Positions 39,001 to 42,000 of a DNA stretch of 64,000 nt are shown here, piece by piece; the first letter of the stretch is position 1; every line of letters starts with the position of its first letter. Origin of the DNA: Escherichia coli O127:H6 str. E2348/69 (GTDB taxonomy: Bacteria; Pseudomonadota; Gammaproteobacteria; Enterobacterales; Enterobacteriaceae); assembly GCF_000026545.1 (NCBI RefSeq), contig NC_011601.1; one strand, written 5' to 3'. The position numbers are program-made.

Positions 39001-42000
39001 TTCTATTACTTATGTAAATAAGTACAACCTTTTCATAGACACAAAAACTATGGCTGACGCATCACTTGCAATCAATTATCCATCATTAGATTAATATTTT
39101 CACTTATTTTTCAGAAGGTAAAAATAACTTTCTATGCGTTTAAAACACCCGCTATAAATATCTTGTATATTATTGACACTATATGATGCTATATGATACT
39201 TGTTGCCAAATTGTTCATTACAAACCAGATAGGAGAATCTCTCATGATAAATGGACTTAATAATGACTCCGCATCTTTAGTTTTAGATGCTGCAATGAAA
39301 GTTAATTCTGGGTTTAAAAAAAGCTGGGATGAGATGTCATGCGCTGAAAAGTTACTTAAAGTACTTAGTTTTGGTTTATGGAATCCAACGTACAGTCGTA
39401 GTGAAAGACAATCATTTCAAGAGTTGTTAACCGTTTTAGAGCCTGTATATCCACTTCCCAATGAATTAGGCAGAGTATCTGCTCGTTTTTCAGATGGCTC
39501 ATCCTTAAGAATTTCCGTCACTAACAGCGAAAGTATTGAAGCCGAGATTCGCACACCAGATAATGAAAAGATTACTGTGCTCCTGGAGTCAAACGAACAA
39601 AATAGGTTATTACAATCTTTACCCATCGATCGCCACATGCCATACATTCAGGTTCATCGTGCCTTATCTGAGATGGACCTGACTGATACTACCTCAATGC
39701 GCAATCTACTTGGTTTTACGTCAAAACTATCAACAACCTTGATTCCTCATAATGCTCAAACAGATCCGCTTTCCGGGCCTACACCATTCAGCTCTATCTT
39801 TATGGATACATGTCGAGGACTCGGCAATGCAAAGCTTTCACTCAATGGTGTTGATATACCTGCAAATGCACAAATGTTGCTTCGCGATGCACTAGGACTT
39901 AAAGACACACACTCATCACCTTCCCGGAATGTTATAGATCATGGTATTTCTCGCCATGATGCAGAGCAAATAGCAAGAGAAAGCAGCGGCAGCGATAATC
40001 AGAAAGCTGAAGTTGTGGAATTTTTATGCCATCCAGAAGCAGCAACGGCCATATGCTCGGCTTTCTATCAATCTTTCAATGTGCCAGCCTTAACGTTGAC
40101 ACATGAAAGGATCTCTAAAGCCAGTGAATACAATGCGGAAAGATCGTTAGATACACCTAACGCTTGCATTAACATCAGTATCTCTCAATCATCAGATGGA
40201 AACATTTATGTTACCAGCCATACCGGGGTTCTGATAATGGCGCCAGAAGACCGCCCCAACGAGATGGGCATGTTGACGAACAGGACTTCTTATGAAGTGC
40301 CGCAAGGTGTGAAATGTACAATCGATGAAATGGTAAGAGCGCTACAACCAAGGTATGCCGCATCTGAAACGTACTTACAAAACACTTAAAATAAAACTTT
40401 ATTAATCAAAACCAATAATAGAAATCACACCCACAATTATTAACAATTTATCCTGAAGTTAATTACAATCAAACAAAAATATTTGTTCTGCAAACAATTT
40501 ACAGTAAATAGAGAAAATGAAAAGAAAACCATTAATTGCATTTTTCATTGCGATATTTATTATGCTAACCATATTAATATTATTTCCATTTAATTGTACT
40601 TACAAAAAATCACCTCAAGAACACTCACTTTCATTTATAAAACAATTACCAAATACGGTGAACTTATCATCTCTTACTTATAATAAAGAGGATGATTTCC
40701 TGTATGCCACCCAGAATAGCCCTGCACAGCTACTTAAAATAACCAAAAGTGGCGACATCATGGACAGAGCCCCGCTGCCTTTTATCTCTGATGCTGAAAC
40801 AATTGAACACATACAAGGGAACATTTTTGCTGCAGTAGACGAAAAGACTTCTGAACTATTCTTTTTTACAGTTACAAAAGATATGCATATCTCCTTTCGA
40901 AATAAAATTCAGTTAGAAAAATTCAATAAAAAGAATAGAGGGTTTGAAGGGCTGGCATGGAAAGCAGATGATCGGATGCTGTTTGTCGCAAAAGAAAGAC
41001 GCCCAAGTAAAATATTTATATATCAACTTTCTTCAGACCTGCTGAGTGTAAAGCAAGCAACTATTCCAGAGGCACTAAATGATATACGTGTTAACGATAT
41101 ATCCGGCCTGGCCTTTAATAATGAAAGTCTGATGATTCTGTCCGATGAATCGCGTAAATTACTCAAGTTTAACCTGACAGAGATGTCTTTCATTGAGATG
41201 CTTGACCTGACAAAAGGAAATCATTCTCTGACCAGTGATTTGCCCCAACCTGAAGGAATTGTAACTCTGCCTGATGAAAGCATTTATGTTGCCAGTGAAC
41301 CTGATATCCTCGCGAAATTTGTCCCTAATAAGTAAGTCTGTCACTGGCCTTATTATTTATCGACCAAATCTGGCAATCTCATAAAGTTATAAAAATACGA
41401 GTATAATTTCACGCTAAATAAACACATTAATAGCTGAAAAGGACATCAGCTATTATCAACCAGAATCTTACTCAGTCTATTAGGATTATCAGACTTATAT
41501 TAGATCCTACAATATATTTAATTTGTATGCAGAATAGAGTGTTCACACCACATCTGGTATAGAAAAGCACAGGCTAGCAAAAACCTGAATAACCCCGTAC
41601 TTACGGAGTTATTCAGGTTAAAAATATCCATAACATCACTTCTGATTTTTATTGCTTACGACGGATATAATTTCTCTGGTCAGCTACTAATATCATCATG
41701 CTCACGCGTTTAATCAAACTCGTGTTTCTCAAACGGACATCGCGGGACAATCTTCTGCTTCTCCCGGCGCATTTTTACCACCTTCGCTACCTGCATTTTG
41801 AGCGGAAGATCCGCTTTTTTCTGGCCCCCGCACATATGCAAGTCCAGTTTTAAATTTATCCTTTATTTCATTCTGAAACAAACTGCTCATAATTTTCTCC
41901 AGTGGAACCTGCATCTCAGGGAGACATCACTACAGAATACTTCCCCTTATGCACTGATTTAATTTTGGTCATTTAGAATAACGGCCTGTAAAGGCTCAAT

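Follow-up and report, generated by a model that had tools for sequence, protein, structure and literature searches.

rorf1, the last gene of the enterocyte effacement island on its yicL side, encodes a predicted five-bladed beta-propeller of the YjiK family with a probable membrane anchor

The gene rorf1 lies at the edge of the enterocyte effacement locus (LEE) in a 64,000-nucleotide stretch of the Escherichia coli O127:H6 str. E2348/69 chromosome (NC_011601.1; this whole stretch is called the window here). The identity of the gene, the membership of its product, rOrf1, in the PF06977 ('SdiA-regulated', YjiK) family, and the modelled five-bladed beta-propeller fold are regarded as close to certain. 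Taken as a whole, the data are best explained by an inner-membrane-anchored periplasmic propeller with a cation-binding acidic face, a reading that was given a probability of roughly 0.6. rOrf1 would then be a bitopic inner-membrane protein, inserted by Sec through an uncleaved anchor (residues 4-22) that leaves the N-terminus on the cytoplasmic side, and ~13 residues of linker would hold an NHL-like five-bladed propeller (residues 36-270) in the periplasm, near the outer leaflet of the inner membrane. The gene is transcribed after espG and strongly induced by Ler, the master regulator of the LEE, and the role of rOrf1 would be accessory, with type III secretion independent of it. The features of the gene are listed below.

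40517-41335, plus strand: rorf1 coding sequence (272 amino acids and stop), an ATG-initiated open reading frame (ORF) with the same coordinates in RefSeq; PF06977 E = 3.7e-53.
40526-40582, plus strand: N-terminal transmembrane helix (residues 4-22), read as a probable uncleaved signal anchor from hydropathy and from the helix in the model.
40622-40645, plus strand: N-terminal beta-strand (residues 36-43), the predicted fourth strand of blade 5, which closes the ring (DSSP).
40664-40774, plus strand: predicted blade 1 (residues 50-86), with the degenerate motifs S51-S-L ... T65-Q-N; S51 is found in 99% of the family.
40793-40912, plus strand: predicted blade 2 (residues 93-132), with D92-x-E94 ... 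D108-E109; E94 and E109 are invariant.
40943-41059, plus strand: predicted blade 3 (residues 143-181), with N140-x-G-x-E144-G-L ... K159-E160-R-x-P163; E160 is invariant and E144 is found in 99%.
41105-41206, plus strand: predicted blade 4 (residues 197-230), with D194-x-S196-G-L ... S209-D-E-S212.
41249-41326, plus strand: predicted blade 5 (residues 245-270), with Q244-x-E246-G247-I ... S260-E261-P262-D263.

The ORF listing and RefSeq agreed on the 272-residue frame, which corresponds to E2348C_3971 (WP_000823904.1; RefSeq name 'SdiA-regulated domain-containing protein'). Over 3.4 kb around the ORF, the sequence matched E2348/69 at 100% identity. A Pfam search aligned residues 48-268 with positions 23-248 of the 249 in the PF06977 profile (180.7 bits, cut-off 21), and a sequence search of the PDB retrieved YjiK of E. 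coli (3QQZ, C-terminal domain; E = 1.7e-33), so that the link to the YjiK/SdiA-regulated family suggested by the initial annotation was borne out. AlphaFold, run from a 149-sequence alignment, returned a confident model (pLDDT 94.8, pTM 0.88), in which the helix at residues 4-22 is followed by 20 beta-strands arranged as five four-stranded blades (DSSP, model m98a467ed1262); a single-sequence model (pLDDT 50.8) was discarded in its favor. Blade 5 of the model is made of just three C-terminal strands, plus strand 36-43. The model was aligned to 3QQZ by Foldseek at E = 4e-20 and a TM of 0.87. Both the PF06977 sequence match and the five-bladed fold of YjiK, the sole solved member, were found in rOrf1, and the repeated-blade fold that had been proposed takes the form of a five-bladed beta-propeller in the model. 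YjiK is the product of a chromosomal gene, whereas rorf1 is Ler-controlled LEE cargo, and rOrf1 has D263 at a position where 94% of the family has Asn. PF13449 ('Phytase-like') also scored above its cut-off (35.1 bits against 27.6, E = 1.7e-8, best stretch residues 92-161); this is an overlapping, related propeller model, and it is not evidence of phytase activity. No model matched in an NCBIfam scan of rOrf1.

The family assignment was already known, having been published in 2005 and annotated in RefSeq. Pallen et al. (2005) matched rOrf1 to PF06977/YjiK, described NHL-like repeats, and predicted six blades (PMC1084347); with five blades in the present model, the six-blade architecture is not upheld. 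The family profile detected the NHL-type repeats of PknD and of the derived Pizza designs (E = 5e-7 to 1e-3), which bears out the proposal of Pallen et al. that the blades are NHL-like. Their motif, x-E/x-G-(V/I/L)-x-x-D-x-x-G-x-(I/V)-Y-(I/V), resembles that of NHL repeats, and some PF06977 proteins also match PF01436. NHL domains (PknD sensor, TRIM/Brat; PF01436) have six blades whereas the modelled rOrf1 has five, and no match to PF01436 was returned at E <= 1 in the Pfam scan of rOrf1. Assignment as an NHL repeat protein (PF01436) was therefore rejected, the blades numbering five and the resemblance lying at the level of the repeat.

The initial annotation had listed at least three spaced motifs, each a (S/E)-G-(L/I) followed by an acidic stretch, and three were present as described (E144-G-L ... 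K159-E-R; S196-G-L ... S209-D-E; E246-G-I ... S260-E-P). The count was revised to five, two further degenerate copies having been located (S51-S-L ... T65-Q-N and E94-T-I ... D108-E-K), and the units start at residues 51, 94, 144, 196 and 246, with a spacing of 43-52 residues. In the model, all five are structurally equivalent, the first motif marking the start of strand 1 and the second the end of strand 2. Among the 149 homologues, E94, E109, E160, E246 and G247 were invariant, and columns conserved at >=90% included S51, D92, N140, G142, E144, G145 and P163, together with D194, S209, S212, Q244, E261, P262 and N263 (the family residue). At >=80% conservation there are 34 columns, and rOrf1 departs from the family in just three of them, H36 (family Tyr), D263 (Asn) and A266 (Tyr); with the other 31 retained, it carries the conserved residues of the PF06977/YjiK family. 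Because they occupy the same structural position in each blade and have the highest conservation among the 149 homologues, the repeat motifs are beyond chance and constitute the most conserved part of the family.

The N-terminus of rOrf1 consists of MKRK and a 21-residue uncharged, strongly hydrophobic run, with three K/R residues preceding the helix. The Kyte-Doolittle 19-residue mean reached 2.98 at this position and was <=0.70 everywhere after residue 40, and a helix was placed at residues 4-22 in the alignment-based model. A search of the N-terminal sequence for the lipobox [LVI][ASTVI][GAS]C gave no match, and no AXA-type cleavage site (small residues at -3/-1) was found after the hydrophobic segment. 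The sole nearby cysteine (C27) lies in F-P-F-N-C, with Asn at -1, and is not conserved, being replaced by Phe/Tyr or shifted among other LEE orthologues. A hydrophobic membrane-targeting segment before the propeller is a property of the PF06977/YjiK family that rOrf1 shares; an N-terminal hydrophobic segment was found in 119/149 homologues (median uncharged run of 18 residues), and a lipobox-like motif in 9/149. Together with the three basic residues, these observations point to a bitopic inner-membrane protein, for which a signal-anchor topology is considered very probable; the cytoplasmic N-terminus and the periplasmic orientation of the propeller are what we infer from the same sequence features. 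The signal anchor claimed by the initial annotation was accordingly retained, and of its two options, 'secreted or membrane-anchored', the second appears better supported.

It is unlikely that rOrf1 instead leaves the inner membrane after export, to become a soluble periplasmic protein by cleavage, a lipoprotein or an outer-membrane-associated protein. Pallen et al. do speak of 'bacterial outer-membrane proteins' for the family (PMC1084347), the Salmonella homologue SrgB has been called a putative lipoprotein in a review of SdiA (PMC12086679), Cys27 follows directly after the hydrophobic segment, and a few homologues (the 9/149 above) carry a lipobox-like motif; however, F-P-F-N-C is not a canonical lipobox, the cysteine varies between LEE orthologues, no small-residue -3/-1 site follows the hydrophobic region, and an uncharged run of 21 residues is as long as a transmembrane helix and unlike a signal-peptide core in length. 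Assignment as a bacterial lipoprotein was rejected, with no lipobox and no conservation of Cys27 among LEE orthologues.

In standard propeller topology, the start of the innermost strand and the end of the second strand share the 'top' face, and residues of the innermost strand line the mouth of the tunnel. Each blade has an (E/S)-G-(L/I) where its first strand begins and an acidic (D/S/K)-E after its second, and by this topology both motifs would surround the central tunnel on that one 'top' face. The acidic residues that are invariant or nearly so (D92, E94, E109, E144, E160, D194, E246, E261) would be clustered there, as part of one acidic surface made of D92/E94, N140/E144, D194/S196, Q244/E246 and S51, plus E109, E160, E210 and E261. 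This face may bind divalent cations, most likely Ca2+, and once loaded with metal it might bind or hydrolyze a small anionic ligand of the envelope or of host origin, in the manner of DFPase, the SGL lactonases and beta-propeller phytase. That rOrf1 binds a ligand or acts as a catalyst with the help of a metal is offered as a tentative proposal, well short of an even chance.

Searches with the PF06977-family profile gave a weak match to DFPase and a faint one to Bacillus beta-propeller phytases (E = 0.1-0.8). The blade-5 consensus of the family (kEDIPqAEGvtlDddGnlYIVs) and DFPase residues 14-35 (tEDIPgAEGpvfDkNGdfYIVa) gave an ungapped alignment at E ~1e-3, in which the invariant Glu (E246 in rOrf1) falls on E21 of DFPase; this concerns one ligand position at a borderline E value, and E21 is a ligand of the catalytic Ca2+. 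The matches to DFPase, phytase and PF13449 suggest a divalent-cation face, probably for Ca2+, that accepts a small anionic ligand. CarP (PA0327) of Pseudomonas aeruginosa is apparently the sole family member with phenotypes, its membership being taken from a review table and from NCBI naming: it is listed as an inner-membrane beta-propeller protein (PMC12802237), in agreement with the topology proposed for rOrf1, and Pseudomonas CarP homologues bear the NCBI name 'SdiA-regulated domain' protein (PMC10574481). CarP, itself Ca2+-regulated, affects Ca2+ homeostasis, swarming and pyocyanin, and Ca2+-dependent virulence traits (PMC10574481). CarP is under CarSR/BqsSR two-component control and its phenotypes are Pseudomonas-specific, whereas rorf1 is under Ler. 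No entry under the name CarP was among those retrieved when the named protein collection was searched with the profile.

Several points weigh against a metal-binding face. The DFPase match is short and borderline (E ~1e-3) and comes from a consensus sequence; the blade-5 segment of rOrf1 itself matched the N-terminal 'PEG' strand of propeller lactonases at E ~1.6, which is not significant. The similarity to the Ca2+-dependent propeller hydrolases (DFPase, SGL/SMP30 lactonases, Bacillus phytase) is confined to one repeat, and DFPase and SGL have mixed Glu/Asn/Asp ligands and six blades, whereas rOrf1 is Glu-rich with five. The proposed clustering of glutamates on one face is drawn from standard propeller topology, and the putative link to CarP from a review table and NCBI naming. 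After YjiK, the nearest structural neighbors of the model were glutaminyl cyclases, with a different chemistry; those of the plant/bacterial type (3MBR, 3NOK) have 10-14% identity to rOrf1, the profile-to-sequence comparison was not significant (E = 1.2), and no glutaminyl cyclase family was found in the Pfam scan of rOrf1 at E <= 1, nor any evidence of a shared active site. No report of metal binding or activity was found in the literature for any PF06977 protein, and deletion of rorf1 is without a reported phenotype.

The acidic face could, alternatively, be a protein- or peptide-binding surface with neither metal nor active site. rOrf1 would then be a non-catalytic interaction scaffold, like the NHL, YWTD and PknD-type propellers, docking an envelope protein such as a component of the type III secretion system (T3SS), EspD or a neighboring surface factor, and this is a somewhat doubtful but possible explanation. 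Several glutamates are invariant across very different taxa and genomic contexts, as would be expected of a metal or small ligand common to the family more than of a variety of protein partners; two-hybrid hits among hydrophobic membrane proteins are often artefacts; and no conserved neighboring gene was found among the contexts examined. According to a table in PMC1084347, secretion, pedestals and virulence were normal in a Citrobacter rodentium rorf1 deletion (Deng 2004), and unaltered secretion and pedestal formation likewise speak against such a scaffold.

That same deletion favors another explanation, in which rorf1 is a hitch-hiking border passenger, functionless now in attaching-and-effacing pathogens; the divergent LEE variants of Salmonella salamae and Edwardsiella lack rorf1 too, and it lies at the island edge beside decayed genes. 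The pattern of selection argues otherwise. Between E2348/69 and O103:H2, the ratio of nonsynonymous to synonymous substitution rates (dN/dS) of rorf1 was 0.34 for the whole gene, 0.25 for the propeller (codons 46-272) and 0.64 over codons 1-45, which encode the anchor and linker; the propeller value lies below that of espG (0.56). rorf1 was carried by 700 of 5,426 complete E. coli genomes, always on the chromosome, and was full length in 695 of these 700, remaining intact in LEE lineages whose DNA sequences are 10% apart. The low propeller dN/dS, the intact copies and the 31/34 family-conserved residues argue that rorf1 is under purifying selection and is therefore not a decaying passenger; since it also has the strongest induction by Ler of the LEE genes on an array (PMC3891560), a functionless passenger is considered highly improbable.

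In the RefSeq annotation, espG is followed directly downstream by rorf1, then by gene remnants and by the intact core gene yicL, which starts at 42354. The tRNA-SeC gene, the insertion site of the LEE, is at 6278-6372, on the opposite side from rorf1, and GC content rises from 0.36 in rorf1 and 0.38 over the LEE to 0.52 in the core genome alongside. These data identify the ORF as rorf1, the final LEE gene, at the yicL-side edge of the island, in agreement with the border position originally described. Between rorf1 and yicL (41336-42353), only decayed genes were found, and GC climbs from ~0.37 to 0.52; the remnants are a frameshifted hypothetical ORF (~41730-41836, minus strand) and a C-terminal fragment of a major facilitator superfamily transporter (~42071-42244, plus strand). 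The upstream part of the transcription unit is as follows.

39193-40389, plus strand: espG, which lies upstream of rorf1 in the same operon (PF06872 EspG, E = 1.7e-208; annotation).
40390-40516, plus strand: AT-rich spacer of 127 nt between espG and rorf1, with one promoter-like match at 40440-40469.

espG and rorf1 form a bicistronic operon apart from LEE1-LEE5 (PMC9979310; PMC5073101), and the placement of rorf1 outside the five polycistronic LEE operons is consistent with this literature (PMC9979310). No terminator-like site was found in the 127-nt spacer. The promoter-like match at 40440-40469 (TTAACA-18-TACAAT, 10/12) was discarded as evidence because such matches were equally frequent in shuffled sequences and it is not conserved in O103:H2, and a separate rorf1 promoter in the spacer was rejected. 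For espG, the longest ORF starts at 39193 (398 amino acids) and the RefSeq start is at 39244 (381 amino acids); the Pfam EspG profile (positions 1-383) aligned from residue 15 of the long form, 3 residues upstream of the RefSeq Met, and the RefSeq start may therefore have been set too far downstream.

In enteropathogenic E. coli, Ler activated rorf1 50-58-fold, the highest value of the LEE genes on the array (PMC3891560). Activation of espG, the upstream cistron, was only 12-fold in the same work (PMC3891560). SdiA acts at the ler promoter (PMC12086679), and the only documented link from SdiA to rorf1 is this indirect route, SdiA at the ler promoter and then Ler on rorf1. Co-transcription with an effector gene in a T3SS island, strong dependence on Ler, and the presence of transmembrane segments in some T3SS substrates (e.g., Tir, EspD) would be in keeping with rOrf1 itself being a type III secretion substrate, effector- or translocator-like, as is its operon partner EspG. 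This explanation is scarcely credible: the extreme N-terminus, where T3SS signals reside, reads as a signal anchor of the classic Sec type; family members occur widely in bacteria of many environments, some of them with type IX secretion system (T9SS) sorting tails; and reviews (one being PMC5073101) class Rorf1 as a protein of unknown function and not as an effector.

Relatives of rOrf1 were found well beyond the LEE. The PF06977 search gave 614 representative clusters at E <= 1e-3, ranging over Beta-/Gammaproteobacteria, Spirochaetes and Latescibacterota and including proteins with T9SS sorting tails, and the family is thus not confined to type III secretion. The genes of distant E. coli paralogues (43-54% identity) adjoin S6-peptidase autotransporter genes in other islands (L002, 8741-9574; L006, 7001-9447; L007, 2408-7589), and such paralogues or other relatives were also on plasmids, or beside insertion sequence elements, F4 fimbrial genes, CcdAB modules or AraC-type regulators. 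No common partner gene was found across the neighborhoods of the relatives, the recurring themes being mobile elements, AraC regulators and S6-peptidase autotransporters, and context therefore gives no functional clue beyond that of mobile virulence cargo. AraC-family genes adjoin PF06977 genes on a Salmonella chromosome and on an E. coli plasmid-like contig (L008, 7001-9025; L009/L010, 6043-7789), and on a Salmonella virulence plasmid (L004, 3291-5862) an AraC-family gene is one gene away from the PF06977 gene, beyond rck; this adjacency may be a recurring regulatory pairing. A 283-residue paralogue (P0168) was followed in both of its loci by a co-oriented ORF of 500 amino acids with no Pfam match. 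A 246-residue protein from an ENA metagenome (P0020, 9 members) has its first 40 residues identical to rOrf1 and an unrelated Tyr/Asn-rich remainder, and represents either a chimera from assembly or a genuine recombination product at the 5' end of rorf1.

The family name can be traced to SrgB. Plasmids searched by tblastn yielded a homologue with 28% identity (E ~5e-20, over rOrf1 residues 49-269), carried by Salmonella virulence plasmids ~94 kb in size and located between a DsbA-family gene and rck in the pSLT-type order pefI, helix-turn-helix gene, DsbA, [YjiK family], rck, AraC. This is the position of srgB in the SdiA-activated operon pefI-srgD-srgA-srgB-rck-srgC (PMC12086679), and 'SdiA-regulated' therefore describes the regulation of one member and not a property of the domain. 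SrgB and rOrf1 are alike in being uncharacterized envelope proteins encoded in horizontally acquired virulence operons; they differ in that the SrgB operon is activated directly by SdiA whereas rorf1 is reached through ler/Ler only, and their sequences are distant. On the pSLT-type plasmid, a second 'SdiA-regulated domain-containing protein' fragment of 98 residues lies downstream of the AraC-family gene that holds the srgC position (fragment at L004, 5959-6255, minus strand).

rorf1 was named as the one LEE gene without an assigned function in a 2016 review (PMC5073101), Rorf1 was called a protein of unknown function in a 2021 preprint, and a literature search by rorf1 locus tags returned gene lists only, with no functional data. 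To this the present analysis adds a confident five-blade model in place of the earlier six, a probable signal anchor in preference to a lipoprotein or secreted form, SrgB as the protein from which the family was named, the invariant glutamates as a defined group of targets for mutation, and purifying selection, which argues against gene decay. These additions are modest, making targeted experiments easier to design, and are not a discovery in themselves. Attaching-and-effacing pathogens show calcium-sensitive type III secretion, a response in which rOrf1 could have a part. By analogy with CarP, it is conceivable, although improbable, that rOrf1 binds Ca2+ in the periplasm through its propeller and, as an enzyme or a sensor, links LEE function to calcium from the envelope or the host, or to an anionic ligand. 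The PF06977 family (YjiK, SrgB and apparently CarP) recurs on the virulence islands and plasmids of enteric pathogens, and if such a role were true, it would parallel that of Pseudomonas CarP and would give rorf1, and the PF06977 family as a whole, a biochemical role.

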